From Candidatus Pelagibacter sp. HTCC7211 (GTDB taxonomy: Bacteria > Pseudomonadota > Alphaproteobacteria > Pelagibacterales > Pelagibacteraceae): DNA of 32,000 bases. The translations under genes were made by a program, and so were the position numbers. The stretch is from assembly GCF_000155895.1 (NCBI RefSeq), contig NZ_DS995298.1, positions 720,001 through 752,000 of the forward strand, written 5' to 3'. Shown piece by piece: positions 5,985-32,000 of this stretch (position 1 is the first letter of the stretch; each line of letters opens with the position of its first letter). A model generated the notes under the pieces. The model was not told the origin of the DNA. It worked only from the letters and a program-made list of their open reading frames with translations, and did not search any database.

Positions 5985-5989
5985 TCTAT

Positions 5990-11790: not shown

Positions 11791-11839
11791 AGAGCAGTGA
11801 ATATAAATACTACAAAAATTATATCACTGCTCTTTTTTA
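11791..11839 (+). terminator. terminator-like hairpin after tctC that sequesters the tctB start codon
   Basis: AGAGCAGTGA (11791-11800) pairs perfectly with TCACTGCTCT (11824-11833) across a 23-nt loop, followed by TTTTTTAT. The left arm contains the tctB GTG start (11797-11799). Confidence 0.45.
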
Positions 11840-12267
11840 TATTTTCAGCGTTTTATTTATATACTGCATACCAAATTCAAGTTTTTGCATTTGATGAAAA
11901 TGCACCTTTTAATGCTAGAACATTTCCGATCTACTTAGGTTACGCTGGATTATTTTTTTCTGGATTAAAACTTATTTTACCAGATCAAAATACTATTAAA
12001 GTTGAGCACAAAAATTTAGAGTATAAAAAAACTGGAATACTTATACTTATTGCAATTATTTATGGAGCTACAATTTTAAAAGTTGGTTATTTTTTAACTA
12101 CTTCTTTATTTTTATTTGCTTCTTATTATTTCCTTGGAGAAAGAAGATGGATATTAATGTTTATTCTTTCTTTTCCTTTTGTAGCAGCATTTATGTATCT
12201 ACTTCACGGAGTTCTTAATATTTATTTAAGAGATCCATTCTTACAATCAATTGGAGTGATGGGATGA
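11797..12267 (+). CDS. tctB: tripartite tricarboxylate transporter small membrane subunit (TctB family)
   Basis: 156 aa with 4 predicted transmembrane segments and a GTG start. It lies between tctC and tctA and overlaps tctA by 4 bp. Confidence 0.75.
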   Translation: MNINTTKIISLLFFIFSAFYLYTAYQIQVFAFDENAPFNARTFPIYLGYAGLFFSGLKLILPDQNTIKVEHKNLEYKKTGILILIAIIYGATILKVGYFLTTSLFLFASYYFLGERRWILMFILSFPFVAAFMYLLHGVLNIYLRDPFLQSIGVMG

Positions 12268-13763: not shown

Positions 13764-14647
13764 GATTTTATATCTACTCTTTTTCTAATTATTTCTTTAT
13801 CAAGTTTCATCTCTCTATAAGAAATTATCAATACACCTATAAATATTATTAATGCACCAATCCAAGTATAAAGATCTGGAATTTCACCAAACACAAAATA
13901 TCCAATAATTGAAGCAAAAACTAAATTTAAAAAAGAGTAGGGTTGTGTCATACTTACATCTACTAGTTTAAAAGCATGGTTTAGCGTTAAATGTAATACA
14001 GTTCCACAGATAGCTGCTAAAAATAAATAGATAAATGTTTTTAAACTAGGTGTTTCCCAAAAAAATAAAACAATAATAAAACTAAATAAGCTCATAAAAA
14101 TAGATTGATGAGCTAAAATTGTTATAGCGCTATCATCTTTTGAGATTTTTTTAGTTATGATTATGTTGATTGACCATAATAATGCTGAAAATAAAATCAT
14201 ATATACTCCAATAGATATATCTACATAACCAGGTCTAATGATAATTAGCATTCCACCAAAACCAAGAATTAGGGCTAAAGTTCTATAGATATAAATCTTT
14301 TCCCCTAAAAAAAATACCGCAAGTATTGTAACCATTAAAGGTACAACAAAAGATATTGCTGTAACTTTTTCAATAGGAAGCAATACTAATGAGGAAAAGT
14401 ATAAAAGCATTGCAGGTAAACCAAGCGCCGCTCTTAACAAATGTTTTTTAATATGATTTGTTTTTAAAACAGCAAAATTTGTTTTGATAATATATGGCAT
14501 AATTATTACTAAACCTAAAAAAAATCTAAAAAAACCTGCAACATAAACATTTACATCTTCTTGAGCTATCCTTAAAAATGAGAGCATCACAGTTCCAAAA
14601 AAAACAGAAATAATTATTAAAAAAATAGCTAATTTATTATTAGACAT
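13760..14647 (-). CDS. DMT superfamily (EamA-like) transporter
   Basis: 295 aa with 10 predicted transmembrane segments and a duplicated EamA-type architecture. Its 3' end overlaps tctA by 4 bp (convergent). Confidence 0.8.
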   Translation of the reverse strand: MSNNKLAIFLIIISVFFGTVMLSFLRIAQEDVNVYVAGFFRFFLGLVIIMPYIIKTNFAVLKTNHIKKHLLRAALGLPAMLLYFSSLVLLPIEKVTAISFVVPLMVTILAVFFLGEKIYIYRTLALILGFGGMLIIIRPGYVDISIGVYMILFSALLWSINIIITKKISKDDSAITILAHQSIFMSLFSFIIVLFFWETPSLKTFIYLFLAAICGTVLHLTLNHAFKLVDVSMTQPYSFLNLVFASIIGYFVFGEIPDLYTWIGALIIFIGVLIISYREMKLDKEIIRKRVDIKS

Positions 14648-19907: not shown

Positions 19908-20423
19908 ATGGCAAGAGTAACAGTTGAAGACTGCATAGACAAAGTAGAAAGCCCTTACGAATTAGTTCTTGTTGCTAAAGAAAGGGCAACTCAATTAAAT
20001 TCAGGTATTGAACCATTACTAGATAGAGATAATGATAAAAATACAGTTATCTCTCTTAGAGAAATAGCAGAAAAAAAAATTAAAGTTTCAGATTTAACCG
20101 AGAGTGCTGTTTACAAACTTAGAAAACACGTTGAACAAGTTGATGATGGTTCAGATGACGATGAAGAAATAGGTGATGATTTTGAAAATATGTATAAGGG
20201 TGAAATTTCAAAAAGTGGTACACCGATCTTACCATCTAAAAGAGCAAGAAAAACTCCTGAAAAAATTCAAGTATCTCAAGAAGACTTAGCTGAAATACAA
20301 AATTCTACAGAAACAAGTTCTGCTGATCCTATAGAAACTGCTGAAGAAGGTGATGCTTCTATCGAAGAAATGCAGGCAGAAGAAATTCAATCTAACGAAG
20401 AAGATACTAATAGCGAAGATTAA
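19908..20423 (+). CDS. rpoZ: DNA-directed RNA polymerase subunit omega with an extended acidic C-terminal tail
   Basis: The N-terminus MARVTVEDCIDKVESPYELVLVAKERATQL is the canonical omega signature. At 171 aa the protein is roughly twice the usual omega length; residues about 80-171 are D/E/S-rich low complexity. Confidence 0.88.
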   Translation: MARVTVEDCIDKVESPYELVLVAKERATQLNSGIEPLLDRDNDKNTVISLREIAEKKIKVSDLTESAVYKLRKHVEQVDDGSDDDEEIGDDFENMYKGEISKSGTPILPSKRARKTPEKIQVSQEDLAEIQNSTETSSADPIETAEEGDASIEEMQAEEIQSNEEDTNSED

Positions 20424-20485: not shown

Positions 20486-21490
20486 TTATTTTGGAATCCA
20501 ACTACTCCATTTATCAGGATTAGCGTCTTTCCATTCTTTAACTACTTCTTTAAGATCTCTATTTTTTTGTTTAACTTCAACTAGCATTACAGCTTGATCT
20601 GCATTGTCAAACTTCATCTTTGTGAAGAATTCTGCAGCTTTAGCATTTTCTGGTTTAGCGAAAGTTGCTGGGTTACCATAGTTGAACGTATAGTCTTTTG
20701 CCCAACCTGTTGCTGGCCATGCAGCAGTTCCACAATCTTTCCAGTTATTAGCTTCAGTAAAACTATCACAAGTTTTGTGCTCAGGAAGACCTACACCAAC
20801 CATATCGTAAGCACCAAAGAACCAATGCGGTTCCCATAGGTATAATAAGAAAGGCTCTTTTCTTTCATATGCAGCAGAGGCTTCAGCAAGCGCAGCAGCC
20901 TCAGTTCCTAACTCATCAGCTTGGAAATCAATTCCTAAAAGATCAAGTCTTTTTTGATCATGACAGTTCCAACCTGCAACAGGACAAGCAATTAATCTTC
21001 CTCTGTTACCACTTTCAATAGTTGCAAATTTGTCTTTATGTTTATTTAAATCTTTCCATGATTTAATTCCATATTTATCTGCAGCATATTTAGGAATAAA
21101 ATAATCTGAAAGTCCAATTATACCAGATGTACCTAAAAGTTTTACACTTCCATCACCTTCATAATTGAACATAGTCTTACCATCATACACTAGAGGTCCT
21201 TTCATCATGACAGTATCTGCTTCAGCATAACTCGGCCAACTTTCACACGCAAAGTCAATTTCACCTGCAGCTATTGCTTCCCACAATCCTGTTCCTGATG
21301 GAAATACTACCCTTTTTACTTTGTATCCCAACTCTTCTTCCAACATACTGACAGCAACCTGACAAGTAATTTCTCCACCTGTCCAGTCTGCTACAGCTGC
21401 TGTTAATCTTTTAGCATTTGCTTGTGAAAAAGTTCCAAGTAAAAGTACAAAAGATAATACAAAAGCTGAAAAAGTTTTTGTTAATTTCAT
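20486..21490 (-). CDS. ProX/OpuAC-type periplasmic binding protein for quaternary ammonium / tertiary sulfonium compounds
   Basis: 334 aa with a signal peptide (LLLGTFSQANA/K). From memory, it is collinear with E. coli ProX, including the three aromatic-cage Trp contexts (ESWPSY, AGWNCHD with its Cys pair, LYLWEPHWF). A strong AGGAG site lies 5 nt upstream of the ATG. Confidence 0.88.
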   Translation of the reverse strand: MKLTKTFSAFVLSFVLLLGTFSQANAKRLTAAVADWTGGEITCQVAVSMLEEELGYKVKRVVFPSGTGLWEAIAAGEIDFACESWPSYAEADTVMMKGPLVYDGKTMFNYEGDGSVKLLGTSGIIGLSDYFIPKYAADKYGIKSWKDLNKHKDKFATIESGNRGRLIACPVAGWNCHDQKRLDLLGIDFQADELGTEAAALAEASAAYERKEPFLLYLWEPHWFFGAYDMVGVGLPEHKTCDSFTEANNWKDCGTAAWPATGWAKDYTFNYGNPATFAKPENAKAAEFFTKMKFDNADQAVMLVEVKQKNRDLKEVVKEWKDANPDKWSSWIPK

Positions 21491-21538
21491 TGTTTCTCCT
21501 CTTAATTAATTAATTAAAAAAAACATACTAATTCAAAA

Positions 21539-21548
21539 ATTATACCCA
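21539..21548 (-). promoter_or_regulatory. candidate -10 element (TGGGTATAAT) of a dedicated promoter for the binding-protein gene
   Basis: A perfect TATAAT (complement of 21539-21544), preceded by TGGG, lies 48 nt upstream of the ATG. It sits inside a 156-bp spacer that separates this gene from the upstream operon genes. The -35 region is weak. Confidence 0.3.
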
Positions 21549-21646
21549 TGTAAACTGTATTAATAATTATTTAAGCAAGATTTTATGCGAGTATAGGTGT
21601 GGTTTTTTGTCAATGACCCAGAATAGGTTAATTTTTTTTAATATCT

Positions 21647-22825
21647 CTATTTTGTTTGTTTAGGAATACTTCTGTCTATGCCTTTAACAATTTTTTTTTC
21701 AGGATCAAAAAAGGGGAGATTTACAACTTTAGATTTATGATTTTCTCCATTAGGCAATTTTAAAATTAATTCTTTTCCTGGCCAATCTTTTGGTTCATAA
21801 AACCTTACGTAACCTATACCTGTGTTAAGTGTTAAAGAGTGAACACCAGCAGTTATATGACCTACAATTTTATCTTCATCGATTACTTTACTACCAGACA
21901 CTGGCGTTTCAGTTTTACAAGTTAAACCAAACAAACAAGTGCCTTTGTCTTTATTTAATAATGCATCACGACCTATAAAATCCTCTTTATCCATATTTAC
22001 GCAAAATCCTAAACCAGCTTCGAAAGGATTTATTGTAGTATCAATATCAGTTAAATTACCAAATATCCCAGCTTCAATTCTTCTTATAGTCATTGCTCTT
22101 GTTGCTGAAAGTTCCATTCCAAAAGGTTTTCCACAATTCATAAGATGGTCCCATAAAGCTAGATGATCAGTTTTAAATCCATCAGAATAGATTTCAAACC
22201 CAAGCTCGTTAGTAAAACCTGATCTTGAAACATATAAGTTTTGTCCTCCAAGATCAAAGAATCCAGATCTATAGTACTGCATATTTTCATTTATCTTTCC
22301 ATTTGAGGCTGCTTTCATAATATCTATTGAAGCTGGTCCTTGTATTTGTATAACCCTTGATTTTGGATCTAAAATTTTTACATCAAATCCTTTGCTGTGA
22401 GCTAATAACCAATCTTCAAAAGGCCCATCTGCTTGTACATACCAAAATTTATTTTCACTAAATTTAAAAATTACTCCATCCATAAATATTCCACCTTGAG
22501 GAGTACATGCTAATGAATAATAGCCTCGACCTTCTTTAATTGTTGAAACTTTTCTAGTCATAACTTTTTCTAAAAATGCAGCCACATCAGGTCCAGATAT
22601 TTCAATTGGTTTTTCAGGAACATCAAACATTGCTGCCTTTTGTCTTAACAGCCAATATTTTTGAACCGGGTCTTCTCCTAAGGAAATTGCAAAATATCTT
22701 CCAGCATAAACACCTCTAACCATTTCTGGAGAATTAGTTCTTTCTATATAAGGGGATTCTTCAAATCTTCTTGCGCTAATCTTTACAGTTTTTTTTAAGT
22801 CAGATAATTCTTGAAAGTTTCCCAT
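21647..22825 (-). CDS. GcvT/DmdA-family aminomethyltransferase (tetrahydrofolate-dependent methyl/aminomethyl transferase fold)
   Basis: 392 aa. GcvT-fold landmarks are AAMFDV..EISGPDVAAFLEKVMTRKV, TPQGGIFMDGVIF, QIQGPAS, SRSGFTNELGFEIY and IEAGI. An AAGGA site lies 10 bp after the upstream stop. The substrate cannot be assigned from sequence alone. Confidence 0.85.
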   Translation of the reverse strand: MGNFQELSDLKKTVKISARRFEESPYIERTNSPEMVRGVYAGRYFAISLGEDPVQKYWLLRQKAAMFDVPEKPIEISGPDVAAFLEKVMTRKVSTIKEGRGYYSLACTPQGGIFMDGVIFKFSENKFWYVQADGPFEDWLLAHSKGFDVKILDPKSRVIQIQGPASIDIMKAASNGKINENMQYYRSGFFDLGGQNLYVSRSGFTNELGFEIYSDGFKTDHLALWDHLMNCGKPFGMELSATRAMTIRRIEAGIFGNLTDIDTTINPFEAGLGFCVNMDKEDFIGRDALLNKDKGTCLFGLTCKTETPVSGSKVIDEDKIVGHITAGVHSLTLNTGIGYVRFYEPKDWPGKELILKLPNGENHKSKVVNLPFFDPEKKIVKGIDRSIPKQTK

Positions 22826-22835
22826 TAAATTCCTT

Positions 22836-25166
22836 TTAATTAATATTTGTTTTATTTCTTAAAATAGTTGGTGGATCGTATGCAGTAATAGATGGAGGAT
22901 TATCAATAAACTTTTCCATCTCAATAAGACATGAATGTGCAATTGGGCCTTGTCCAAGTTTAGAGGTTCCTTTATCCAGTGTTAAAACATTAGGATTACC
23001 GTGTTTACACATAGAATTAGGTTCATTAGCTTTTTCTGGATCATACCAGGCTCCAGTGCTAATTTGTACAACACCTTCCATTACTTTTTTATTAACTTTA
23101 ACTCCTGCCAAGCAAGCTCCTCTATTATTAAAGAGCTTGACAACATCACCATTTTTTAATCCACGTTTCTTTGCATCATGTGGATTAATTTCTATGGGCT
23201 CTCGGTCATTAATTTTGAAGGATTTACTGTATTTACCATGATCCATTTGGCTGTGTAATTTATTCTTTGGTTGATTTGAAATTAAATGAAGTGGAAAGGT
23301 TTTATTTTTTTTGCCAAGCCACTCACAAGGTTCTAACCAAACAGGATGGCCAGGGCAATCATTATAATTAAAGTCAGCAACAGTTTTGGAATATATTTCA
23401 ATTTTACCGCTAGGAGTGTTTAAAGGATTCTTTAAAGGATCTTCAATGAATTCTTTTAGCATGAGTGTAGGTTCTGAAGGATCTTTAATCTTAAACCATT
23501 TATTCTCTCTAAATTTCTCATAGCTTGGAATTTCAATATTAGCTGCTTCAGCTCGTTTAGAAGTCTCGGAATATATCCATTTTTGCCATTCTTCTTGGGT
23601 TCTACCTTCTGTAAATTCGTCTTTAACACCCATTCTTTTAGCTATATTGGAAAAAATTTCATAATCATCTTTTGCTTGTTTATAAGGTTCAATTATTTTT
23701 GACATAGAAACAACATAAGGATCTCTTGGTGTCATCATAATATCACTTCTTTCAAGAGGTGTTGTGCAAGGTAAAACAATATCTGATCTTTTAGCCAATG
23801 TATTCCAACACCATTCATTTGATATAATAGTATCTGGTTTTTCCCAAGCTTTAATCAAACGATTTAGATCTTGATGATGATGAAAAGGATTTCCACCAGC
23901 CCAATAAACTACTTTTGTATCTGGATATTCATAACTTTTTCCATCAAAATCAAATCTTTCTCCTGGGTGAAGTAAAAGATCACTAATCCGAGCAACAGGA
24001 ATAAAATTTTCTATTTCATTTTTTGTTTGTGGAAAGGCTGCTCCTGGTAAAATAGTAAATTGACCGCCTATAAAATTTGTAGCACTGTATCCAAATCCAA
24101 ATCCACCACCTGGTAATCCAATTTGTCCAATCATAGATGCCAACATTATCGCCATCCAAAACGGTTGCTCTCCATGATCTTGTCTTGTCAAAGACCAACT
24201 TAGAGAAATCATACTTCTCTTAGAGGATAACTTGTGAGCTAATTCTTTTATTTTTTCTGGAGATATATTGCATATTTCAGCAGCCCAGCTTGCATCTTTT
24301 TTAATTCCATCAGTTTCACCTAAAAGATAAGGTAAAAATTTTTCAAACCCTTCTGTATATTTTTTTAAAAACTCTTTATCACTTAAACCTTCTACGTGAA
24401 GTGTGTGTGCTATTCCCAGCATAAGTGCAGTGTCAGTATTTGGTCGTGCAGCTATCCAATCACATTTAACGTCATCAATAAAATCAGATTTTAATGGGCT
24501 TACATTAATAAATTCAATTCCTGATTTTGAAGCCTCTATTAAATTTTCTTGCTGATAATGATTTCCTGTTCCTCCTTGAGAAATTTGACCATTTTTTATT
24601 GGAATTCCTCCAAAGCATAAAAATACTTTAGTATTATCTTTAATTGAACTCCAACTCGTACATGTATCTAGATAAGCTCTATAACTTCCAAGTATATGGG
24701 GAACCATTGCTTCAGCTGCAGCAAAGCTGTAAGTAAATTTTGAACTAGTATAACCACCTATACAATTTAAAAATCTATGAAGTTGACTTTGAGCATGATG
24801 AAATCTTCCAGCGCTTGCCCACCCATATGATCCTCCATAAATAGACGGGTTTCCGAATTTCTCTTTAACTCGATTAAGTTCATCGGCGACTAGCTGTTCA
24901 GCCTTTTCCCAACTAACTTCTACAAATGGCTCACTTCCACGTAATTTATTATTTGTACCTGGTCCACCTTCCAGCCAACTCTTTCTAATCATTGGTGAGT
25001 CTATTCGAGTAGGACCATCAAGTACATCTAAAATTCCTTGCGCAATAGGTGAAGGGTCTTTGTCATGTTCCCACCCTAAAAGTTCCTGAATTTTTCCATC
25101 TTTGACTTTTGCTCTGTATGTACCCCAATGATTACTAGTTAAAGGAAGACCTTTATCTTTGGTCAT
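22836..25166 (-). CDS. cytoplasmic molybdopterin (bis-MGD) oxidoreductase of the BisC/TorZ S-/N-oxide reductase clade
   Basis: From memory, it is collinear with E. coli BisC: LTSNHWGTY, GSYGWASAGRFHHAQSQLHRFLNCIGGYT, YSFAAAEAMVPHILG (aligns with DYSTGAAQAIMP, which I recall carries the Mo-ligand Ser), HPVWLEP, SQMDH. I moved the start to MTKDKG (ATG at 25166-25164), which forms an ATGA overlap with the permease stop. The track start at 25214 would overlap the permease gene by 52 bp. Confidence 0.88.
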   Translation of the reverse strand: MTKDKGLPLTSNHWGTYRAKVKDGKIQELLGWEHDKDPSPIAQGILDVLDGPTRIDSPMIRKSWLEGGPGTNNKLRGSEPFVEVSWEKAEQLVADELNRVKEKFGNPSIYGGSYGWASAGRFHHAQSQLHRFLNCIGGYTSSKFTYSFAAAEAMVPHILGSYRAYLDTCTSWSSIKDNTKVFLCFGGIPIKNGQISQGGTGNHYQQENLIEASKSGIEFINVSPLKSDFIDDVKCDWIAARPNTDTALMLGIAHTLHVEGLSDKEFLKKYTEGFEKFLPYLLGETDGIKKDASWAAEICNISPEKIKELAHKLSSKRSMISLSWSLTRQDHGEQPFWMAIMLASMIGQIGLPGGGFGFGYSATNFIGGQFTILPGAAFPQTKNEIENFIPVARISDLLLHPGERFDFDGKSYEYPDTKVVYWAGGNPFHHHQDLNRLIKAWEKPDTIISNEWCWNTLAKRSDIVLPCTTPLERSDIMMTPRDPYVVSMSKIIEPYKQAKDDYEIFSNIAKRMGVKDEFTEGRTQEEWQKWIYSETSKRAEAANIEIPSYEKFRENKWFKIKDPSEPTLMLKEFIEDPLKNPLNTPSGKIEIYSKTVADFNYNDCPGHPVWLEPCEWLGKKNKTFPLHLISNQPKNKLHSQMDHGKYSKSFKINDREPIEINPHDAKKRGLKNGDVVKLFNNRGACLAGVKVNKKVMEGVVQISTGAWYDPEKANEPNSMCKHGNPNVLTLDKGTSKLGQGPIAHSCLIEMEKFIDNPPSITAYDPPTILRNKTNIN

Positions 25167-27292
25167 ACTTGTTTTTTTTCTAAACCTAAAGCTATTCTTT
25201 GTTTTTTTGTCCAAGCAAGACTTATTCTATCAATAATAATAGCCATCAGAACAATCCCAATTCCTGCAGCCAATCCTCTTCCGGTATCAGATCTTGCTAA
25301 TCCGTTAAACACTTCAAGACCTAAACCTTTACCCCCAATTAAAGGTGTAACAATTTGCATTGCAAACGCCATAATTACAGTTTGATTGAAACCAATTACT
25401 AGACTTGGAACAGCCAATGGAAATTTAACTTTGTTTAATGTTTGAATTAAAGTTCCTCCAAATGATCTTGATACTTCAGAAAAACTTCCAGACACTTGAG
25501 TAAGACCCAAAGATGTTAATCTAATAATTGGAGGTATCGCATAAATTACAGTTGCTAATACAGCAGAAACAATACCGCCCCCAAAAAACATCAAAACAGG
25601 AATTAAATAACAAAAATACGGAAGTGTTTGCATCGCATCTAATATTACATTTTGGATATCTCTAAATCTTTTATTATATGATGCTATTATTCCTAATGGT
25701 ACACCAAGTGCAAAACATAAAGCTACTGATACTAAAACAGATGATAAAGTAACCATTGATTGTGTCCAAATTCCACAAGCAGCAATAAAAAATAACAACA
25801 ACACTGTAATGATTGCAAATCTAAATCCTACAGTAAAGTATCCAATTGCTGCGAATATACTCATAGTGTACCACCAAGGTATATGAGTTAAAAATGTATC
25901 GAGAGGATTTAAAAGGTTCAGATAAACAAATGCTCTCAAACCTTTTGTAAACCCTATAAATGAAGGATTAACTGTAAGAGACTTAACAGTTTCTGCTATT
26001 GGTTGTCTTATAGAAAGTTTCCATTCTGATGGAAATGATCCAATGTTTACAACAAAAGCGTCAATTAAAACGATAATAAAAAAAACTATAAATGATGGAA
26101 TTAAATAATATCTTTTACTTATTAACTCTCCTATTTCATTACCCAAGTCTTTGTTAAAAACAGAAATTAAATATTTAAATAAGTCACCTATTAAAGTGGT
26201 TACTTTTTCACAAATAAATTTAATTATTAAATGAATTAAAGTTAAAGGTCTTTCTAGGATTCTAGCTATTTGATATTTTTCCCAAGTTTGAGGTAGTAAA
26301 TAAAATTTTTGAACATCTGATGGAAGAGTTTCTTCTTGTTTGCTAAACGACATACTAAACCTATCAAATAGAATAGCCATAAAAAGAATACACAATCCAC
26401 CTTCCATTGCCCAACCTACATCAAGATTTCGAATTGCTAACCATACCTGGCCACCTATACCTTCCGCACCAATAAAACACGCTAATACTACTAGTGCCAA
26501 AGCCATCATAATTACCTGGTTAATACCCATCATGATGCTTGGTAATGAAAGTGGAATTTTAATTTTGTAAAGAAGCTGAAGTTTGCTTGAACCAAATGAA
26601 GTAGCAGACTCAATTGTTTCTTTGGAAACTTGTCTTATTCCAGAATTAGTTAACCTTATTACAGGAGGCATTGCATAAATCATTGTTGCCAATATCGCAG
26701 GTGCTCCTCCAATTCCAAAAAAGAATAAAGCTGGAAAAAGATAAACAAATGCTGGCATGACTTGCATTGTATCCAAAACTGGTTTCATGAAATTATCAAA
26801 CCGATTACTTTGAGAACATAAAATTCCGAGAATAACTCCAAAAAACACACATAAGAAAACTGATAATCCCATTAATGCCAAGGTTTGCATTGACTCATCC
26901 CACATTCCTACTGCACCCCAAAAATAAACCACAAATATAGAATACAAGCCTAATTTTAAACCTCCTGCAATTAAGCAAGGCAAAAAGAGAATTGCAGCAA
27001 TCAACAACCATGGAGAGTCTATAAGAAAATCCTCTAAGACATAATATCCTTCTTTAATATAGCTAGCGATTATTTTTGTTATCCATCTATAATTTTTTTT
27101 TAAGTAATCCTCGCCATCATTAACCCATGCAGTAAAAGTAAATTCATCTGTTATTTGCTTTGGAAATTTTGAAGGACCGTCGTTTTGGAAGGAAAGCCAT
27201 AAGGCACCCAGAAACACAGCTAACACAAGAATATATTTAACTAAACTCTTTGACGAGTCTGATTTTTCTAAAACATGACCTTCAGCAGACAT
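25163..27292 (-). CDS. tandem-fused double ProW/OpuAB-type ABC permease
   Basis: 709 aa. It has two homologous transmembrane modules, each with its own EAA loop: SFGSSKLQLLYKIKIPLSLPSIMMGINQ and SFGGTLIQTLNKVKFPLAVPSLVIGFNQ. Both also carry MPPVIRLT / IPPIIRLT motifs. The modules are joined by a linker of about 100 aa. Confidence 0.88.
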   Translation of the reverse strand: MSAEGHVLEKSDSSKSLVKYILVLAVFLGALWLSFQNDGPSKFPKQITDEFTFTAWVNDGEDYLKKNYRWITKIIASYIKEGYYVLEDFLIDSPWLLIAAILFLPCLIAGGLKLGLYSIFVVYFWGAVGMWDESMQTLALMGLSVFLCVFFGVILGILCSQSNRFDNFMKPVLDTMQVMPAFVYLFPALFFFGIGGAPAILATMIYAMPPVIRLTNSGIRQVSKETIESATSFGSSKLQLLYKIKIPLSLPSIMMGINQVIMMALALVVLACFIGAEGIGGQVWLAIRNLDVGWAMEGGLCILFMAILFDRFSMSFSKQEETLPSDVQKFYLLPQTWEKYQIARILERPLTLIHLIIKFICEKVTTLIGDLFKYLISVFNKDLGNEIGELISKRYYLIPSFIVFFIIVLIDAFVVNIGSFPSEWKLSIRQPIAETVKSLTVNPSFIGFTKGLRAFVYLNLLNPLDTFLTHIPWWYTMSIFAAIGYFTVGFRFAIITVLLLFFIAACGIWTQSMVTLSSVLVSVALCFALGVPLGIIASYNKRFRDIQNVILDAMQTLPYFCYLIPVLMFFGGGIVSAVLATVIYAIPPIIRLTSLGLTQVSGSFSEVSRSFGGTLIQTLNKVKFPLAVPSLVIGFNQTVIMAFAMQIVTPLIGGKGLGLEVFNGLARSDTGRGLAAGIGIVLMAIIIDRISLAWTKKQRIALGLEKKQV

Positions 27293-27314
27293 AAATATAG
27301 TAATTTAAATAAAC

Positions 27315-27337
27315 TATTTTACTTTTAAAGTAAAATA
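27315..27337. promoter_or_regulatory. 23-bp perfect palindrome in the divergent promoter region (candidate operator)
   Basis: TATTTTACTTT-T-AAAGTAAAATA has 11-bp arms. It is centred 34 nt from the permease ATG and 45 nt from the ATPase ATG, within the 78-bp divergent spacer. Confidence 0.4.
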
Positions 27338-27370
27338 TTGTCTTATCTCGCTTAAAGTTTTTGAATTATT

Positions 27371-28417
27371 ATGGCTGATAATAATAAAATAGTTTGCACA
27401 AATATCTGGAAATTGTTTGGACCAGATGAAAAAAGAATAAAAGAAAATTTAGATCCAAATCTCTCAATTAAAGAAGTTCAAGAAAAAACTGGGCATGTTG
27501 TGGCTGTTAAAAATGTTAGTTTTTCAATACAAAAAGGTGAAACTTTTGTTGTGATGGGCTTATCAGGAAGTGGAAAATCAACATTAGTAAGATGTATATC
27601 TAGATTAATTGAACCAACCTCAGGTACAGTTAAAATGGACGATATTGATGTAACTAAAATGAGTGGTGGAGAATTATTAGATTTAAGAAGAAACAAAATG
27701 AGTATGGTCTTCCAGCACTTTGGATTATTTCCTCATAGAACAGTTGTTGAAAATATTGCATACGGACTAGAAATTAGAGGCAATAAAAAACAAGAACGAA
27801 CAGACAAAGCTATGGAAGTTTTAAAAATGGTTGGTCTTGATGGTTGGCAAAATAACTACCCAAGAGAATTGTCGGGGGGCATGCAACAAAGAGTAGGACT
27901 TGCAAGAGCATTAGCTGTAGATCCAGAAATTTTAATTTTTGATGAACCATTTTCAGCTCTAGACCCTTTGATAAGACGAGAGATGCAAGATGAATTATTA
28001 AAACTTCAAGAGAAGCTTCAAAAGACAATGGTCTTTATTACTCACGATTTTTTAGAAGCAATTAAAATGGGAGACCATATTGCAATTATGAAAGATGGCG
28101 AAGTTTCTCAAGTTGGGACACCTGAAGAAATAGTCGCAAATCCAAAAGACCAGTATGTAAAAGATTTCTGTGAAGATGTTCCAAAATATAAAGTTCTTAG
28201 TGCAGGAAAAGTCATGAGAAAAGAATGTTGTGATGATACTAAAAAGTTATATGGAGATAAATCACATTGTATACTTGATAATTCTAAAATTGAGACACTT
28301 ATAGATAAGTTAGTCGACTCCGATAAATCGTTTCCGGTAGTGTGTAGCGATACAGGAGATTTGTTAGGCGAAATAGATCGAGCGATAGTAATGAAATCAA
28401 TGAAATCAGCTAGTTAA
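27371..28417 (+). CDS. ProV/OpuAA-type ABC transporter ATP-binding protein with a short CBS-like C-terminal domain
   Basis: 348 aa. Motifs: Walker A GLSGSGKST, Q-loop, signature LSGGMQQRV, Walker B ILIFDEPFSALD, H-loop THD. The C-terminal region of about 90 aa resembles a regulatory CBS module and is shorter than the tandem CBS of classical OpuAA. Confidence 0.92.
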   Translation: MADNNKIVCTNIWKLFGPDEKRIKENLDPNLSIKEVQEKTGHVVAVKNVSFSIQKGETFVVMGLSGSGKSTLVRCISRLIEPTSGTVKMDDIDVTKMSGGELLDLRRNKMSMVFQHFGLFPHRTVVENIAYGLEIRGNKKQERTDKAMEVLKMVGLDGWQNNYPRELSGGMQQRVGLARALAVDPEILIFDEPFSALDPLIRREMQDELLKLQEKLQKTMVFITHDFLEAIKMGDHIAIMKDGEVSQVGTPEEIVANPKDQYVKDFCEDVPKYKVLSAGKVMRKECCDDTKKLYGDKSHCILDNSKIETLIDKLVDSDKSFPVVCSDTGDLLGEIDRAIVMKSMKSAS

Positions 28418-29342
28418 ACTGATTATTTCCTTTAATACTTTTTTGTTTAACTTTATCTCTCCAAATAATTATCATACCAGCTAAAACAATTGCTATCACA
28501 CCTGGAAAAAGTTGTTCCCAAGGTGCTTCTTTAAAAAAAATCCATCCAAGAACAAAAGAGGAGGGTATACCCAAATATTCAAATGAAGCCATTTTACTTG
28601 CTGAGATTAATCTATAGGAATAGATAAATAAAATTGCAGCAGTTCCACCCAATATACCTGTTAAAGTCATCAAAAAGAAATCTTCAATACTTTTTATTTC
28701 AACATGGCCAGTTGTAATAAAATATAAAATTACACCACCTATAACATTAAACATAAGAGTGAATAGTTGTATCTTTGCAGTTGAGTGACCCTCAGGAATA
28801 AATTTAAGTATTATAACTGTTATAGCCCAAGCGATAGCAGTTAAAATAGGGAAGATAGAATAGAAATTGAATATCTCGCTGGTGGGTTTCATAATTAAAA
28901 CAACACCTAAAAAACCTATAAAAATTGCTGACCATCTATAAATACCAATCATGTCTTTTAAAAAAAATATTGAAAATATAACTATAAAAAAAGGGGATGA
29001 AAAAGTAAGAGTCATTGCAGTTGCAAATTCAAGATTTATTACAGAAATAAATATAAAAATATTCATTGCTAAAAATCCCAAACCTCTAAAAAAACTGAGT
29101 GTAATGAATGTCTTATTAAGATTTTTAAATATCGTAAAATGCTCTTTTGTAAATAAAATCAGCAAAATTAGAGGTATAATACCTGCAATATTTCTAAACA
29201 CTGCAAGTTGAATGACAGAATATTCATCTCCTAAAAATTTAATTACTACCATATATAAATCAACACATAGAATTGCCATTAGCATAGTAGTCACTGCAAG
29301 ATAAGTTTTTTTAATATCAATCTTTTCTGAGGAAATTTTCAT
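28410..29342 (-). CDS. DMT superfamily (EamA-like) transporter
   Basis: 310 aa with 10 predicted transmembrane segments. Its 3' end overlaps the ATPase gene by 8 bp (convergent). Confidence 0.8.
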   Translation of the reverse strand: MKISSEKIDIKKTYLAVTTMLMAILCVDLYMVVIKFLGDEYSVIQLAVFRNIAGIIPLILLILFTKEHFTIFKNLNKTFITLSFFRGLGFLAMNIFIFISVINLEFATAMTLTFSSPFFIVIFSIFFLKDMIGIYRWSAIFIGFLGVVLIMKPTSEIFNFYSIFPILTAIAWAITVIILKFIPEGHSTAKIQLFTLMFNVIGGVILYFITTGHVEIKSIEDFFLMTLTGILGGTAAILFIYSYRLISASKMASFEYLGIPSSFVLGWIFFKEAPWEQLFPGVIAIVLAGMIIIWRDKVKQKSIKGNNQFN

Positions 29343-29382: not shown

Positions 29383-30573
29383 ATGAGTAATTTTAAACTA
29401 AATGAATCTGATATCTTGTCTAATCAAGATTGGACATTCCCAACTAACATTGCATATGGTCCTGGTCGTTTAAAAGAAATAGGCACAATGTGTAATAATT
29501 TAGATATCAAGAATCCACTAATAGTAACAGATAAAGGTAGCCCAAAATTACCATTTGTAACAAATTTACAAAGATATTTAGATAACTCAAATGTAAAGTC
29601 AGATATATTTTTTGATATATCGCCTAATCCTCGAGAGGATGAAATATCAGTGGGTTGTAAAAAATATAACGATGGAAAACATGATTCAATAATTGCTATC
29701 GGTGGTGGAAGTGCCATGGATGGAGGTAAATTAATATGCCTCACAGCAAATAATGATGTGCCACTAAGAGATTTTGAATTTGAACTTACACCTCCAATAA
29801 TTAGTAAAGATAACCCTTTTCCAAAAATTATAACTATTCCTACAACAGCAGGCACAGGAGCTGAAACAGAGATAACAGCAATGGTTACCTACTTAAAAGA
29901 AGGTATGAAATTTTGTATGTGGCATCCAGATGTTAGACCGTCTTTAGCATTAATTGACCCCGAGTTAACAATAGGATTACCATCTAATTTAACAGCATGG
30001 ACAGGAGCTGATGCTTTAATACATGCTATAGAGGGATATTGTGTGCCTGGATTTAATCCAATGTGTGATGGGGCAGCACTGGAAGGACTTTCTTTAATTT
30101 CAAAATCATTAATTAAAGCAGTTGAAGAGCCTGAGAATATATTAGCAAGAGGTGGTATGCATGTTGGATCTTGTTTAGCAGGAATATCATTTTTGAAAGG
30201 TTTAGGAAATGTTCATTCTATTTCCCATATGGTAGGAGCAGAATATAATACCCATCATGGACTAACTAACGCAATAGTTTTACCAGTTGTCATGAAATAT
30301 AATTTGCCAGGAATGGAAGAAAAAGTTCAAAGAATGTCAGAAGCAATGCAATACAAAGATCATTCTGTAAACGCATTTATAAAAAATTTAGAGAACCTTT
30401 TAGATAGAATTAAAATTCCAAATAGTTTGAGTGAAATTAATGTTCCAGAGGATTGTGCTGAAAGAATTGCTGAAAAAGCAATGAAAGATCAAGCGTATGC
30501 AACCAATCCTAAAGTAGCTTCATTAGCTGAAATGAAAGAAATGGTTTTGCAAAGTATTAAAAAAGCTCGATAA
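29383..30573 (+). CDS. iron-containing (group III) alcohol dehydrogenase family protein
   Basis: 396 aa. It has the GGGSAMDGGK nucleotide-binding motif, PTTAGTGAE, and the metal-binding His cluster HSISHMVGAEYNTHHG. Confidence 0.88.
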   Translation: MSNFKLNESDILSNQDWTFPTNIAYGPGRLKEIGTMCNNLDIKNPLIVTDKGSPKLPFVTNLQRYLDNSNVKSDIFFDISPNPREDEISVGCKKYNDGKHDSIIAIGGGSAMDGGKLICLTANNDVPLRDFEFELTPPIISKDNPFPKIITIPTTAGTGAETEITAMVTYLKEGMKFCMWHPDVRPSLALIDPELTIGLPSNLTAWTGADALIHAIEGYCVPGFNPMCDGAALEGLSLISKSLIKAVEEPENILARGGMHVGSCLAGISFLKGLGNVHSISHMVGAEYNTHHGLTNAIVLPVVMKYNLPGMEEKVQRMSEAMQYKDHSVNAFIKNLENLLDRIKIPNSLSEINVPEDCAERIAEKAMKDQAYATNPKVASLAEMKEMVLQSIKKAR

Positions 30574-30579: not shown

Positions 30580-32000
30580 ATGCTTGAAAATCAATCAGTT
30601 AAAGAAATACAAAACAATATAAAAAGTCGACAAATCTCAATTAAAGAGGTTGTTGAGTATTATTTAGACAGAATTGAAAAATTTAATCCGGATTTAAACG
30701 CTATTGTTCTTCAAAAAGATCGTGAATTAATCATAAAAGAGGCAATTGAAAAGGATAATATCAAGGAAATTGACAAACCTTTAAATGGATTGCCAATAGC
30801 AATTAAAGATCTGACAGATGTCGTGGGTTTTAAAACTACATACGGATTTCCAGGATCAAAAAATAACCAACCAAAAAAAAACTCATTATTTGTTAATCGA
30901 TTAATTGATAAAGGAACAATTGTTATTGGTAAAACAAACACAGCAGAACTTGGTGTAGGTGGACATACAATTAATAGGCTTTTCGGACCAACATCAAACA
31001 TTTATGATTTATCAAAATCAGCAGCAGGATCAAGTGGAGGTGCAAGTTCAGCTGTTGCTGCTGGATTATTGCCATTTGCTGATGGTACAGATCAAATGGG
31101 ATCATGTCGTGGACCTGCAGCATATGCAAATATTTATGGTTTTAGACCCACACCAGGTCTAATCCCTTCAGATCGCTCAGGACAAAATTTAAATTATCCA
31201 ATACTTACGACGCCAGGATGTTTTGCGAGAAATCCAAGAGATATGTCGATTTTATTAGATGAAATTGTAGGAAGTGACTCAGTTGACAAATTTTCATTTG
31301 ATTTAGATGGCTATTTTAAAAATCAAAATATAAGTGAAAAAGAATTTTCATCTTTTAAAATTGGATGGCTTTCTAATATGAATGGGAATTATATTATAGA
31401 AAAAGATATATTGGAAATTTGTGAGACTAAATTAAAAGATTTAGAAAAAATAAATCTTAGAGTAGAAAATCTTAAACCAAAAATAAATACTGATATTTTG
31501 TGGAAGAGTTGGACAACTTTAAGAGCCAAAAGTATTTATGAAGATACTTTAGCTATGAATATTATAGATATTAGTTCAATGACATATCAAGCAATTTGGG
31601 AATATAACAAAGGCAAAGAAATTAAAGCCGAAGATCTAAAAATAGCCTTAAATCAAAAACAAGAATGTTTAAATCAAATAAATTTAATGTTTGAGAATTT
31701 TGATTTTTTAGTATTACCATCAGCTCAAATTTTTCCCTTTGATAAAAAATTACAATTTCCAAAAAATATTAATGATAAAGAATTAGATACTTATCATCGT
31801 TGGTTAGAAGTTTTTATATTATCCAGCCTTTTAGAACTACCTACAGTTACAATTCCAGCAGGTTTTAACAAAGATGGCATGCCTATGGGTATGCAAATTA
31901 TTGGGAAAAATAAAGATGATTTGAAATTATATTCTTTTGCAAGTAAATATGAAGATATTTTCAATTTTAGTAAAATTAAACCTAAATTAGATAAGTTAAG
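30580..32000 (+). CDS. amidase-signature family amidase (partial; the 3' end runs off the window)
   Basis: My own translation from the ATG at 30580 stays open to position 32000 (473 codons). It shows GLPIAIKD (catalytic Lys), AAGSSGGASSAVAAG (cis-Ser) and GTDQMGSCRGPA (nucleophile Ser). It is missing from the track because it is open-ended. It starts 6 bp after the ADH stop. Confidence 0.85.
   Translation, partial: MLENQSVKEIQNNIKSRQISIKEVVEYYLDRIEKFNPDLNAIVLQKDRELIIKEAIEKDNIKEIDKPLNGLPIAIKDLTDVVGFKTTYGFPGSKNNQPKKNSLFVNRLIDKGTIVIGKTNTAELGVGGHTINRLFGPTSNIYDLSKSAAGSSGGASSAVAAGLLPFADGTDQMGSCRGPAAYANIYGFRPTPGLIPSDRSGQNLNYPILTTPGCFARNPRDMSILLDEIVGSDSVDKFSFDLDGYFKNQNISEKEFSSFKIGWLSNMNGNYIIEKDILEICETKLKDLEKINLRVENLKPKINTDILWKSWTTLRAKSIYEDTLAMNIIDISSMTYQAIWEYNKGKEIKAEDLKIALNQKQECLNQINLMFENFDFLVLPSAQIFPFDKKLQFPKNINDKELDTYHRWLEVFILSSLLELPTVTIPAGFNKDGMPMGMQIIGKNKDDLKLYSFASKYEDIFNFSKIKPKLDKL

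Follow-up and report, generated by a model that had tools for sequence, protein, structure and literature searches.

The window analyzed here, a stretch of 32,000 nucleotides from Candidatus Pelagibacter sp. HTCC7211, carries a locus in which two enzymes are set into an ABC importer operon. On the minus strand lie genes for a binding protein (SBP; 20486-21490; PF04069 [OpuAC], 142 bits), a stand-alone, folate-binding GcvT-fold protein (GcvTL; 21647-22825; GCV_T and GCV_T_C domains), a molybdenum enzyme (BisCL; 22836-25166; Molybdopterin_N, Molybdopterin, and Molydop_binding domains), and a fused double ProW/ChoW-type ABC permease (25163-27292), which has two BPD_transp_1 stretches and passes the cut-off of TIGR03416 (432 bits versus 363). 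A ProV-type ABC ATPase (27371-28417) is encoded divergently on the plus strand and passes the cut-off of TIGR01186 (proV; 368.9 bits versus 326.6). Open reading frame calls and a reading of the letters themselves verified the coordinates, strands, and gene junctions that a first-pass annotation had assigned to these five genes. The locus conserved in SAR11 is, however, larger than that annotation supposed. It also includes an EamA/DMT-family membrane transporter (28410-29342, minus strand; PF00892), an Fe-dependent alcohol dehydrogenase (Fe-ADH; 29383-30573, plus strand), and an amidase-signature family gene on the plus strand, a 475-codon open frame that runs from 30580 to beyond the window end at 32000. 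The Fe-ADH was assigned from domain and NCBIfam models, the closest being 4-hydroxybutyrate dehydrogenase, lactaldehyde reductase, and GbsB, all of which it matches below cut-off. For BisCL, the longest reading frame opens with a TTG within the permease gene (25214); the N-termini of homologues instead fit the ATG at 25166 as the probable start.

The permease stop and the BisCL start overlap in GTATGACC (i.e., ATGA), and after the BisCL stop codon TAA come 10 nt, AAGGAATTTA, which include AAGGA, and then the GcvTL ATG. Ahead of the SBP gene is a 156-bp spacer, in which a consensus scan predicts a sigma-70-like promoter (TTTACA-18-TAGTAT; 21554..21525, minus strand); its TTTACAT and -10 region are kept in 12 SAR11 loci. 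What had been described as one minus-strand unit is thus probably two transcripts, since the SBP gene has a predicted promoter of its own, although the junctions are as reported. Upstream of this promoter, the motif ACAAnnnACCnCAC (21596..21611, minus strand) is shared by 10 of the 12 SAR11 spacers in the alignment and is possibly a regulator site; no regulator gene was found at the SAR11 locus. The promoters of the permease operon and of proV presumably sit in the 78-bp divergent region between them (27293..27370), where there are only weak matches to promoter consensus.

BisCL stands directly upstream of GcvTL in all 38 assessable SAR11-type loci and in 15 of the 29 assessable loci from other groups (Rhodobacterales, SAR116, Arenicellales, Poriferihabitaceae, and Halieaceae), with gaps of -3 to 39 nt. 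The pairing is spread over two proteobacterial classes, and its conservation across orders and classes places it beyond chance. Most loci with enough flanking sequence have an OpuAC-type ABC transporter and a Trp-cage binding protein in the same cluster, and junctions and synteny together sustain the earlier claim that the enzymes are embedded in an onium-type importer operon rather than merely adjacent to it. The synteny check proposed at first pass, in which gene order proved to be kept far beyond SAR11, removes the "chance juxtaposition" considered there. A BisCL without any functional link to GcvTL, that is, a housekeeping enzyme for the repair of biotin or methionine sulfoxide caught by chance in the transporter operon of a compact genome, is accordingly contradicted already by the survey, and we regard it as scarcely credible. 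SAR11 genomes are indeed very compact, and one SAR11 subclade has a gene for the biotin transporter BioY at a distance of about 6 kb. Yet the adjacency also occurs in the large genomes of unrelated orders, including chromosomes of 2.3 to 6.3 Mb, the coding sequences overlap or nearly abut, and in Granulosicoccaceae a second clade, sister to BisCL (47% identical), has independently come to stand beside GcvTL, in reversed order. Of the non-SAR11 loci that retain the transporter and GcvTL, about half have no BisCL; the core pathway therefore needs no deoxygenation, and the molybdenum enzyme would be an optional add-on to a wider onium-osmolyte pathway.

Judged from its sequence, BisCL is a cytoplasmic, Ser-ligated bis-MGD reductase of S- or N-oxides, and it forms a distinct clade in a comparison that left out the R. 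sphaeroides BisC group. It is 37 to 42% identical to BisC, TorZ, TorA, and DorA, bears no Tat signal, and has DorA (698 bits) and MtsZ (688 bits) among its matches to solved structures, with DorA the closest. The catalytic residues and the lack of a Tat signal support the cytoplasmic S-/N-oxide reductase described at first pass. The BisC/TorZ-clade label given there was too strong, because identity to E. coli BisC and TorZ is only 37 to 40%, versus 64% between those two, and the TIGR00509 (bisC_fam) score of 970.7 falls under the cut-off of 1017.55. In the alignment (DorA numbering), Y114, W116, Y146, S147, and Y165 are retained, with the catalytic set Y114, W116, and S147 intact. The pocket residues of S-/N-oxide reductases and their roles have been defined previously (PMC8166771), and in BisCL the substrate pocket appears to be remodeled: two of the five conserved hydrophobic residues are replaced (W196Q and Y360A), H359S, T148F, and D145T are further changes, E163 has become Arg, and a Lys is gained at 143. 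Such a pocket would point to an oxide with a charged side chain, which we count in favor of the pathway proposed below.

GcvTL scores below every NCBIfam cut-off, its top match being the C-terminal domain of trimethylamine N-oxide (TMAO) demethylase (Tdm; 186 bits versus 1,100), followed by GcvT (163 versus 300) and DmdA (155 versus 410). Its identity is 27% to DmdA and 30% to B. subtilis GcvT, and in the tree it joins the DmdA-like proteins, apart from GcvT and Tdm, at 92 to 94% bootstrap. In its GGIFMDG motif, Met takes the place of the catalytic Asp, a residue of the GGxxDD motif that is present in T-proteins and Tdm and is Asn in DmdA. Separate in the tree and without the T-protein Asp, GcvTL belongs to none of GcvT, Tdm, and DmdA. 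It forms a new family of its own, sister to DmdA, and falls outside the glycine-cleavage T proteins, as the first-pass annotation had it. We predict that it is a tetrahydrofolate (THF)-dependent methyltransferase; in several loci no oxidase accompanies it, and DmdA is a precedent for direct transfer of a methyl group from a sulfonium to THF (PMC5395565). The match to Tdm would also suit a two-protein demethylase, in which BisCL would use the oxygen of TMAO or another N-oxide to hydroxylate an N-methyl group and GcvTL would capture the formaldehyde as 5,10-methylene-THF. Such a scheme requires no external electron donor and agrees with a molybdenum enzyme that has no redox partner encoded nearby. 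We nevertheless consider it extremely unlikely: GcvTL lacks the Asp found in all Tdm-like and GcvT-like representatives examined and groups with DmdA, it often occurs without BisCL, and SAR11 strain HTCC1062 already has tdm and TmoXWV (PMC8918994).

The SBP is a periplasmic OpuAC-family protein with a Sec signal peptide, of a type found almost exclusively in SAR11. Aligning it to TmoX and DmpX bears out the intact Trp cage noted at first pass (W36, W85, W174, and W219), and other pocket residues (A89, S128/D129, N175, and Y217) are unlike those of TmoX and DmpX. With these differences, and at 26% identity to TmoX and 21% to RnDmpX, the SBP is neither protein; the nearest solved relative, TmoX 4XZ6, is matched at only E 4e-17. 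SAR11-type binding proteins have a DmpX-like Tyr (Y217) and, at the site where DmpX binds the DMSP carboxylate, a Ser-Gly-Thr loop (PMC10030565). Two unrelated Trp-cage OpuAC lineages, about 28% identical, have been recruited to the BisCL-GcvTL pair, which speaks for an onium substrate, and in both the position of TmoX F106 holds a smaller residue (A, V, or I), which implies a ligand larger than TMAO.

These pockets bear on DMSO assimilation, in which a TmoX-like binding protein would import DMSO, BisCL would reduce it to DMS, and GcvTL would pass a methyl group to THF and free methanethiol for sulfur assimilation. HTCC1062 uses DMSO as a sulfur source by enzymes that are not known (PMC10686828), DorA is the solved structure closest to BisCL, and the solved relative nearest to the SBP binds TMAO, a DMSO isostere. 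Some operons (five loci, in Octadecabacter and other Rhodobacterales) also encode a SELENBP1-type methanethiol oxidase homologue with a ferredoxin, although its match to MtoX is weak (153 versus 650). The binding pockets, however, are enlarged rather than reduced relative to TmoX, and the loss of hydrophobic residues and gain of Lys and Arg in BisCL argue against a small neutral substrate. Many loci have GcvTL and the transporter without BisCL, HTCC1062 appears to be without GcvTL (PMC3160333 lists only four genes of the aminomethyltransferase family in this strain), and the alcohol and aldehyde dehydrogenases described below are left unexplained; we find this route quite unlikely. Methionine salvage is in our estimate highly unlikely. 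Here S-methylmethionine and/or methionine sulfoxide would be imported, GcvTL would convert the former to methionine, and BisCL would reduce free methionine sulfoxide, as E. coli BisC and TorZ and H. influenzae MtsZ do (PMC8166771). S-Methylmethionine is a sulfonium that would suit the Trp cage and a DmdA-like enzyme, and SAR11 need reduced sulfur (Tripp 2008, as cited in PMC10030565). But the His (HiMtsZ H182) and Arg of the methionine-sulfoxide-reducing group are both absent from BisCL, this route gives no role to the accessory dehydrogenases, lyases, and BetI, and the module is retained in sulfate-assimilating roseobacters and sponge symbionts.

Missed at first pass, and recurrent with the pair in the synteny survey, are an Fe-ADH or BetA-like dehydrogenase, an aldehyde dehydrogenase (ALDH), BetI, and either a CitE-like lyase or a carnitine-dehydrogenase-like gene with BKACE. 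The Fe-ADH occurs in 40 loci and, in Rhodobacterales, Halieaceae, and related groups, lies directly downstream of GcvTL (60 to 65% identical). The BetI-type regulator passes one of the BetI equivalog cut-offs (126 versus 118), and the GMC (BetA-like) enzyme passes that of the choline dehydrogenase subfamily (731 versus 605). The ALDH is closest to HpaE (444 bits), Rv0768-type (422), and BADH (419; cut-off, 668.6) models, and the 3HCDH protein, which BKACE adjoins, is closest to L-carnitine dehydrogenase (343 versus 414). Together these genes suggest a wider onium-osmolyte pathway, for alcohols and acids that resemble choline or carnitine or for the sulfonium analogues of these. Were the substrates nitrogenous, choline- or carnitine-type quaternary amines would be imported and converted to glycine betaine, by the Fe-ADH or BetA-like enzyme with ALDH in a choline branch and by the carnitine-dehydrogenase-like gene with BKACE, or the CitE-like lyase, in a carnitine branch; GcvTL would be a new THF-dependent glycine betaine demethylase and BisCL an accessory reductase of N-oxides such as TMAO. 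The model matches above, a permease over the choline permease cut-off, and the convergence of all the choline and carnitine routes on glycine betaine speak for such a series. However, sulfonium has an oxide form (sulfoxonium) and quaternary ammonium has none, which favors sulfur and leaves the tight BisCL-GcvTL operon without chemical logic in the nitrogen series. To our knowledge, no GcvT-fold enzyme takes a methyl group from ammonium, the known demethylation routes being BHMT, Rieske oxygenases, and corrinoid proteins. Most accessory enzymes fall short of their equivalog cut-offs, which is what paralogues with analogous substrates should do, and the binding proteins do not resemble ChoX (TIGR03414, 47 to 49 versus 379). 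We judge the nitrogen series unlikely.

Our leading, still tentative, reading is that the module serves the catabolism of methylated onium osmolytes, with import, demethylation, and deoxygenation of zwitterionic dimethylsulfonium or dimethylsulfoxonium compounds and DMSOP as the foremost substrate. The analysis shows which genes are present, that the pairing is conserved, where the families belong, and which active-site residues they carry; from these we infer the substrate, the order of the reactions, and the source of electrons. The Trp-cage binding protein and ProVW-type transporter would import the compound, cytoplasmic GcvTL would move one S-methyl group to THF to give 5-methyl-THF, and BisCL would strip the oxygen from the oxidized form, making oxidized and nonoxidized forms both usable. 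DMSOP could be reduced by BisCL to DMSP, which GcvTL would convert to MMPA, or GcvTL could first yield 3-methylsulfinylpropionate, which BisCL would reduce to MMPA. The former order, proposed at first pass, is still the best single candidate but was drawn too narrowly, given the wider set of accessory genes and the optional BisCL. The two kinds of dehydrogenase (alcohol and aldehyde), together with either the CitE-like lyase or the carnitine-dehydrogenase-like gene and BKACE, would feed sulfonium alcohols and beta-hydroxy acids (e.g., sulfocholine and gonyol-like compounds) into demethylation or, alternatively, process the carbon skeleton. SAR11 and roseobacters already possess DmdA, and a second DMSP demethylase therefore needs a reason; we also know of no precedent for sulfoxonium reduction by an enzyme of the DMSO reductase family. 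The loci without BisCL count against the sulfur reading as well, as does the observation that the accessory genes match choline and carnitine models best, nitrogen compounds fitting at least as well. In its favor, DMSOP and DMSO each serve HTCC1062 as a sulfur source for growth, by downstream steps that are not known, and DMSOP demethylation has been stated as an open question (PMC10686828); Moco genes are present in SAR11 (PMC3160333). The SELENBP1-type homologue and ferredoxin of some Rhodobacterales operons also fit the sulfur reading, although the weak match to MtoX and the small number of loci count against it. The open-access papers searched and NCBIfam (June 2026) hold no description of a BisCL-GcvTL transporter module, in agreement with the earlier remark that no pathway of this architecture had been characterized.

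Two further neighbors accompany the module. EamA genes adjoin it in 33 loci, non-SAR11 taxa carrying a different EamA lineage, and stand next to BetI or GcvTL in loci L042, L059, L071, L078, L076, and L082. The amidase gene, with a PF01425 match in L081, is conserved in SAR11-type loci only, where it directly follows the Fe-ADH and is 63 to 97% identical in 29 loci.

We searched GTDB, represented by one genome per species, with a profile built from a five-sequence alignment of GcvTL, the GcvT-fold protein of the window (21647-22825, minus strand), and its relatives. At least 577 of 600 candidate stretches were confirmed, and the best 80 loci, designated here by L numbers, were kept with 9-kb flanks and surveyed for neighboring genes by tblastn with the window proteins and by all-against-all clustering of open reading frames (ORFs). 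BisCL, the molybdenum enzyme of the S-/N-oxide reductase type (22836-25166, minus strand), is encoded directly upstream of GcvTL at all 38 assessable SAR11-type loci and at 15 of the 29 assessable loci from other lineages, with an intergenic gap of -3 to 39 nt. The 15 loci include Planktomarina, Octadecabacter, Marivita, Albidovulum, other Rhodobacterales/Paracoccaceae, SAR116-like Alphaproteobacteria, Arenicellales, Poriferihabitaceae, and Halieaceae. In the distant non-SAR11 taxa, BisCL and GcvTL are 66 to 74% identical to those of the window, whereas the binding protein and permease are only 26 to 31% identical; there, the enzyme pair has been combined with another transporter lineage from within the superfamily. 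This conservation across lineages, including with another transporter lineage, rules out the chance juxtaposition against which the first-pass annotation had cautioned, and we consider it less likely that the genes have no functional link. Two Granulosicoccaceae loci encode a BisCL sister, 47% identical, on the opposite side of GcvTL. The module is widespread across lineages and abundant; its carriers include one 1.3-Mb JGI genome, and clustering of near-identical sequences groups 351 members with GcvTL and 1238 with the binding protein.

Within the window, ORF reading reproduced the gene positions proposed at first pass, and Pfam and NCBIfam models back each assignment: a fused double ProW-type permease (25163-27292), BisCL, GcvTL, and an OpuAC-family binding protein (20486-21490) on the minus strand and a divergently transcribed ProV ATPase (27371-28417) on the plus strand. 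The junctions described there are likewise present in the sequence, namely, the ATGA overlap between permease and reductase, the 10-nt gap with an AAGGA site between reductase and methyltransferase, and the 156-bp spacer ahead of the binding-protein gene. The most probable start codon of the reductase is the ATG at 25166, not an upstream TTG. The importer is of the ProVW type (permease, TIGR03416, 432 bits against a curated cut-off of 363, in two stretches; ATPase, TIGR01186, 368.9 against 326.6). As for the single minus-strand unit that had been proposed, the gene order stands, but the binding-protein gene is probably carried on its own transcript, from a promoter-like element in the spacer (21525-21554, minus strand). 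This sigma-70-like element (TTTACA, 18 nt, TAGTAT) is conserved in twelve SAR11 loci, as is a motif upstream of it, ACAAnnnACCnCAC (21596-21611, minus strand); no regulator gene is encoded near the SAR11 locus. Across the whole window, Rfam gave a single match, a tRNA (774-847), and no riboswitch was detected in the spacers.

The window has a G+C content of ~30%, and its gene order and sequence are nearly identical to those of SAR11 single-cell genomes, the best locus being that of Pelagibacteraceae AG-325-A21 (L001), with a GcvT-fold gene 98% identical. The conserved SAR11 block extends beyond the ATPase gene, where the first-pass annotation had ended it, to an EamA transporter, an Fe-alcohol dehydrogenase (Fe-ADH), and, after a 6-nt gap, an amidase-signature gene (30580-32000, plus strand) that runs past the window end. 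This amidase is 63 to 97% identical in 29 SAR11-type loci; in Arenicellales and Poriferihabitaceae, the amidases close to the module are all distant ones (~25% identical).

GcvTL scores below every curated NCBIfam cut-off (Tdm, 186 of 1100 bits; GcvT, 163 of 300 and 126 of 236; DmdA, 155 of 410). Its family is small: among 1.84 billion representative proteins, ~15 to 20 clusters exceed ~230 bits, and the next scores are those usual for GcvT, DmdA, and Tdm at large. When GcvTL was aligned with 100 representatives and with reference sequences, a GGxxDD motif was present in all GcvT-like and Tdm-like proteins, the first Asp of which we take to be the catalytic Asp97 of the Escherichia coli T protein, and DmdA-like proteins had NDP. 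All members of the GcvTL family have MDG or a variant with S, V, or C for M, and the window protein reads GGIFMDG. Neighbor-joining with 200 bootstraps recovered the GcvTL family and the DmdA-like clade at 100% each and placed the two together, against GcvT plus Tdm, at 92 to 94%. Given the sub-cut-off scores, the MDG motif, and these bootstraps, we regard GcvTL as a new sister family of DmdA. Of the GcvT/DmdA-family label applied earlier, the relation to DmdA is thus upheld and membership in DmdA is not: the score falls short, the clade is sister rather than nested, and identity is 27% to Pelagibacter ubique DmdA (30% to Bacillus subtilis GcvT). Nor is GcvTL a bona fide glycine-cleavage T protein, a possibility the first pass had raised, as scores, motif, and a position outside the GcvT clade all speak against it.

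Tdm, the trimethylamine N-oxide (TMAO) demethylase, consists of an N-terminal catalytic DUF1989-type domain fused to a GcvT-like domain, ~760 to 800 aa in total. GcvTL has 392 aa and matches only positions 403 to 762 of the Tdm profile, so it is not Tdm itself. A Tdm-like demethylase divided between two proteins would give GcvTL a partner, but we consider it less likely; in several genomes, GcvTL stands beside a transporter with neither an oxidase nor a Mo enzyme. Like DmdA (P. ubique structure 3TFH), GcvTL is a stand-alone three-domain GcvT fold of ~370 to 390 aa that shares the folate-binding domain and has a nonacidic residue at the T-protein catalytic Asp position, although that residue is Asn in DmdA and Met in GcvTL. 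From this residue, the sister relation, and the stand-alone occurrence, we infer that GcvTL would transfer a methyl group from sulfonium directly to tetrahydrofolate (THF), as DmdA does (PMC5395565), rather than capture formaldehyde. The two differ in setting, with GcvTL inside a transporter operon alongside a Mo enzyme and dmdA unclustered with transporters (PMC10030565).

The SAR92 "DmdA" proteins are ordinary peripheral DmdA (35 to 40% identity) and not members of the GcvTL family. The SAR11 strain HTCC1062 probably has no GcvTL, since only four aminomethyltransferase-family genes are listed for it. Contexts of distant GcvTL relatives were uninformative; one (P0124) adjoins EamA, and another (P0127) adjoins a glutathione transferase (GST) gene followed by an NAD-dependent formate dehydrogenase. 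Some non-SAR11 operons also hold a second GcvTL paralogue, 40 to 50% identical and with MDG kept, a few kilobases from the first (L057, L060, L065, and L075, 10650-11800; L045, L046, L064, L068, and L076), and at SAR116-like loci a VOC/glyoxalase-family gene lies between the two. Such paralogues suggest two successive demethylations or two substrates.

BisCL comprises the Pfam domains Molybdopterin_N, Molybdopterin, and Molydop_binding and aligns end to end with mature DorA; it lacks a Tat leader, as does BisC. With DorA, TorA, TorZ/MtsZ, and BisC, the Ser-ligated S-/N-oxide reductases of the type III dimethyl sulfoxide (DMSO) reductase family, it shares the three-domain architecture, the Mo ligand Ser147, and the catalytic Tyr114 and Trp116 (DorA numbering, as elsewhere unless stated), and it also retains Tyr146, Tyr165, and Trp322. 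The earlier placement in the BisC/TorZ clade is not borne out. BisCL reaches 970.7 bits on the bisC_fam model TIGR00509, against a cut-off of 1017.55, and is 37 to 40% identical to BisC and TorZ of E. coli, which are 64% identical to each other. Across the four references compared (E. coli BisC, TorZ, and TorA and Rhodobacter capsulatus DorA), the range is 37 to 42%, and beside these four BisCL forms its own clade with 66 to 82% internal identity. A place in the Rhodobacter sphaeroides BisC group ("group 3" of PMC8166771), which would entail clustering with RsBisC and direct use of NADPH, is conceivable for BisCL.

The residues around the substrate set BisCL apart from DorA, TorZ, and BisC, as does its encoding inside an ABC importer operon beside a folate enzyme. 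Two of the five hydrophobic-pocket residues that accommodate the S-/N-oxide group in DorA, TorA, and MtsZ, W196 and Y360 (PMC8166771), are replaced by Q197 and A362 (BisCL numbering), Y165 being kept; the motif that surrounds the ligand, GDYSTGA, reads KFTYSFAA in BisCL, which also has Arg instead of Glu163. The alignment is validated by its column mapping, which gives the residues reported in PMC8166771 for DorA, TorZ, and BisC at two side-chain-binding positions. Read from these substitutions, the BisCL pocket would be wider and more polar, with two new positive charges, and may be adapted to an oxide with an anionic side chain.

The binding protein belongs to the OpuAC/ProX type (cluster F-III; PF04069, 142 bits) and has an N-terminal hydrophobic signal ending in ANA-K. 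Its best solved relative is TmoX (4XZ6), at only E = 4e-17, followed by RnDmpX (7YLE) at 5e-6. We rebuilt both sequences from the structure-match alignments, and the numbering fits the published pocket residues. The intact Trp cage reported earlier is confirmed, with W36, W85, W174, and W219 falling in the alignment columns of the TmoX and DmpX cage, and all four are kept in 55 of 55 binding proteins linked to the BisCL-GcvTL pair. The module shares this cage with TmoXWV, the TMAO importer of roseobacters and SAR11, together with the fused double-ProW permease and the ProV ATPase, and TmoX is the closest solved relative of both binding-protein lineages, yet at 26 to 31% identity. The window's protein (26%) is not TmoX. 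The SAR11 type has Ala (A89) at TmoX Phe106, Ser-Asp (S128) at Glu131, and Tyr (Y217) at Phe220; in the non-SAR11 type, the Glu is retained and the two Phe are replaced, the first by Val or Ile and the second by Met. In TmoX, Glu131 hydrogen bonds the oxide oxygen and is essential for TMAO binding, and TmoX orthologues are ~51% identical (PMC8918994). HTCC1062 has its TmoX as a separate protein, SAR11_1302, as well as a second OpuAC protein, SAR11_0797, without an identified ligand (PMC11485210).

The DMSP-specific importer DmpXWV likewise combines an OpuAC-family protein with a Trp cage. The key residues of DmpX are W35, T64, W84, E113, W152, Y200, and W202, and dmpXWV, unlike the module's importer, is reportedly unlinked to catabolic genes (PMC10030565). 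The SAR11 type keeps the four Trp and has Tyr at the position of Y200 (TmoX Phe220) and a Ser-Gly-Thr loop at that of the carboxylate-binding T64, which aligns with G66 flanked by S65 and T67; the two proteins are just ~21% identical overall, with S128 in the column of E113. The window's protein has no more than 212 relatives at E ≤ 1e-20, and among the best 120 of these, those with a name come from Pelagibacter. By these residues, neither binding-protein type appears to be TmoX or DmpX. For the module as a whole, a substrate of a kind not yet thought of, such as an organoarsenic analogue, is improbable but has a place among the candidates.

The genes around the pair bear on whether the substrate is a sulfur or a nitrogen compound. 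Among the best 80 loci, the non-SAR11 operons of the pair include a BetI-type repressor (11 loci), Fe-ADH (40 loci when SAR11 is counted too) or a BetA-like GMC dehydrogenase (10 loci, mostly where Fe-ADH is absent), a betaine aldehyde dehydrogenase (BADH)-like enzyme (9 loci), a CitE/RipC-like acyl-CoA lyase (at least 12 loci), and at times a GST, VOC, or AhpD-like protein. A large SAR11 subclade (L016 to L039 and L052, ~10190-12800) has a 3-hydroxybutyrate dehydrogenase-like SDR gene and a BKACE gene between GcvTL and the binding-protein gene, joined in L016 and L017 by an L-carnitine dehydrogenase-like gene and followed by an AMP-ligase, which belongs to the malonyl-CoA synthase family and is not DmdB-like. 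L002, L005, L006, and L009 have the same genes just past the binding-protein gene, with a luciferase-like monooxygenase and an alpha/beta hydrolase. The betIBA/choXWV clusters and the carnitine dehydrogenase/BKACE route share with the module the BetI-type repressor, GMC or Fe-ADH, BADH-like aldehyde dehydrogenase (ALDH), carnitine dehydrogenase-like 3HCDH, and BKACE; the module adds GcvTL and, in most cases, BisCL, neither of which figures in those known pathways.

The main rival to a sulfur substrate is a nitrogen one, in which choline or carnitine would be converted to glycine betaine for a new betaine:THF methyltransferase. This reading better accommodates the BetI, BetA-like, BADH-like, carnitine dehydrogenase-like, and BKACE context, but it gives the Mo enzyme nothing to do and has no known chemical precedent, and we regard it as unlikely. 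Most accessory enzymes score too low to pass the equivalog cut-offs set for true choline and carnitine enzymes. We picture the set as a "shadow" of the choline/carnitine-to-betaine pathways that would act on an onium alcohol or beta-hydroxy acid, with GcvTL as the common downstream step and BisCL as a frequent but dispensable addition.

Five Rhodobacterales loci encode a SELENBP1-type methanethiol oxidase homologue followed by a 2Fe-2S ferredoxin, the former matching the methanethiol oxidase MtoX weakly (153 of 650 bits). In Octadecabacter (L072), permease, BisCL, GcvTL, Fe-ADH, ALDH, CitE-like, SELENBP1-like, and ferredoxin genes form one tight unit. The CitE/RipC-like lyase, cytoplasmic SELENBP1-type protein, and plant-type ferredoxin recur as a trio at the operon end (L072, 7476-10043; L053, L069, L038, and L041). 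On a Paracoccaceae chromosome (L069, 10215-12781), the Fe-ADH after GcvTL matches in two pieces ~1.4 kb apart, as if an insertion had split the gene. In L045, L051, L074, and L040, mainly loci without an intact BisCL, the gene after GcvTL, or after GcvTL and CitE, encodes a GstA-like glutathione transferase, which might replace the reductive step there.

Our preferred reading, held tentatively and at somewhat less than even confidence, is sulfur based. The importer would take up dimethylsulfonium or dimethylsulfoxonium zwitterions, and GcvTL would pass one S-methyl group to THF. BisCL would deoxygenate the oxidized form before demethylation, converting dimethylsulfoxonium propionate (DMSOP) to DMSP, or might act after it, converting 3-methylsulfinylpropionate to methylmercaptopropionate (MMPA). 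We favor sulfur because DmdA, to our knowledge the only precedent for a stand-alone GcvT-fold methyltransferase acting on an onium compound, uses a sulfonium and because, as far as we know, an oxide (sulfoxonium) form exists only for sulfonium compounds. The cationic residues gained in the BisCL pocket, the DmpX-like features of the SAR11 binding pocket, and the co-operonic methanethiol oxidase homologue of some roseobacters point the same way. So does the growth of HTCC1062, which uses DMSOP and DMSO as sulfur sources by downstream steps that are unknown; how SAR11 obtains sulfur from the two compounds and whether DMSOP is demethylated are explicit open questions (PMC10686828). Assimilation of DMSO itself we consider a less likely role for the module, as we do methionine salvage. 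If sulfur is the substrate, the module could be the missing cytoplasmic route from DMSOP and related oxidized methyl-sulfur zwitterions to MMPA or methanethiol plus methyl-THF in SAR11, roseobacters, SAR116, and sponge symbionts, with the first Mo reductase specific for sulfoxonium or sulfinyl carboxylates and a new THF methyltransferase family; we put this fuller proposal forward as rather doubtful.

Every component comes from a known superfamily. NCBIfam release 20 has no name for the GcvTL family, for the BisCL clade, or for their combination with an onium importer in one operon, and the open-access full-text literature, which omits most subscription journals, where an earlier description may exist, yielded no description of the module, including under DMSOP reductase or demethylase, SAR11 molybdoenzymes, and catabolic genes for sulfocholine, DMSA, or gonyol. 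Within that scope, the earlier impression that no characterized pathway has this architecture held up. The dominant bacterioplankton of the surface ocean, SAR11 and roseobacters, are also the drivers of methylated sulfur and nitrogen osmolyte turnover. Current annotations of these genes read "glycine betaine transporter," "aminomethyltransferase," and "TMAO/biotin sulfoxide reductase," and gene-based accounting of the sulfur and methylamine cycles would be led astray by such labels. Some of the Rhodobacterales carriers appear to be culturable.

Elsewhere in the window, four plus-strand genes (1421-5034) encode an MTA phosphorylase-like protein (PNP_UDP_1), an MTR-1-P isomerase-like protein (IF-2B), a class II aldolase, and a single-ORF fusion of S-adenosylmethionine decarboxylase and spermidine synthase. 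The run resembles a cluster for methylthioadenosine salvage, or a "DHAP-shunt," combined with polyamine synthesis, in which the aldolase product would be 2-(methylthio)acetaldehyde, also a small methyl-sulfur compound. Further transporters comprise an amino acid-type ABC system (SBP_bac_3 and two permeases; 5094-7356), a TctCBA tripartite tricarboxylate transporter (10789-13763), and a second EamA gene (13760-14647). A 129-aa ORF (8144-8533), considered as a DddK-type cupin, is instead DUF6165. The RNA polymerase omega subunit gene (19908-20423, plus strand) encodes 171 aa, with the Rpb6 domain at residues 8 to 59 and a long C-terminal tail that is highly acidic, with many Glu, Asp, and Ser residues.
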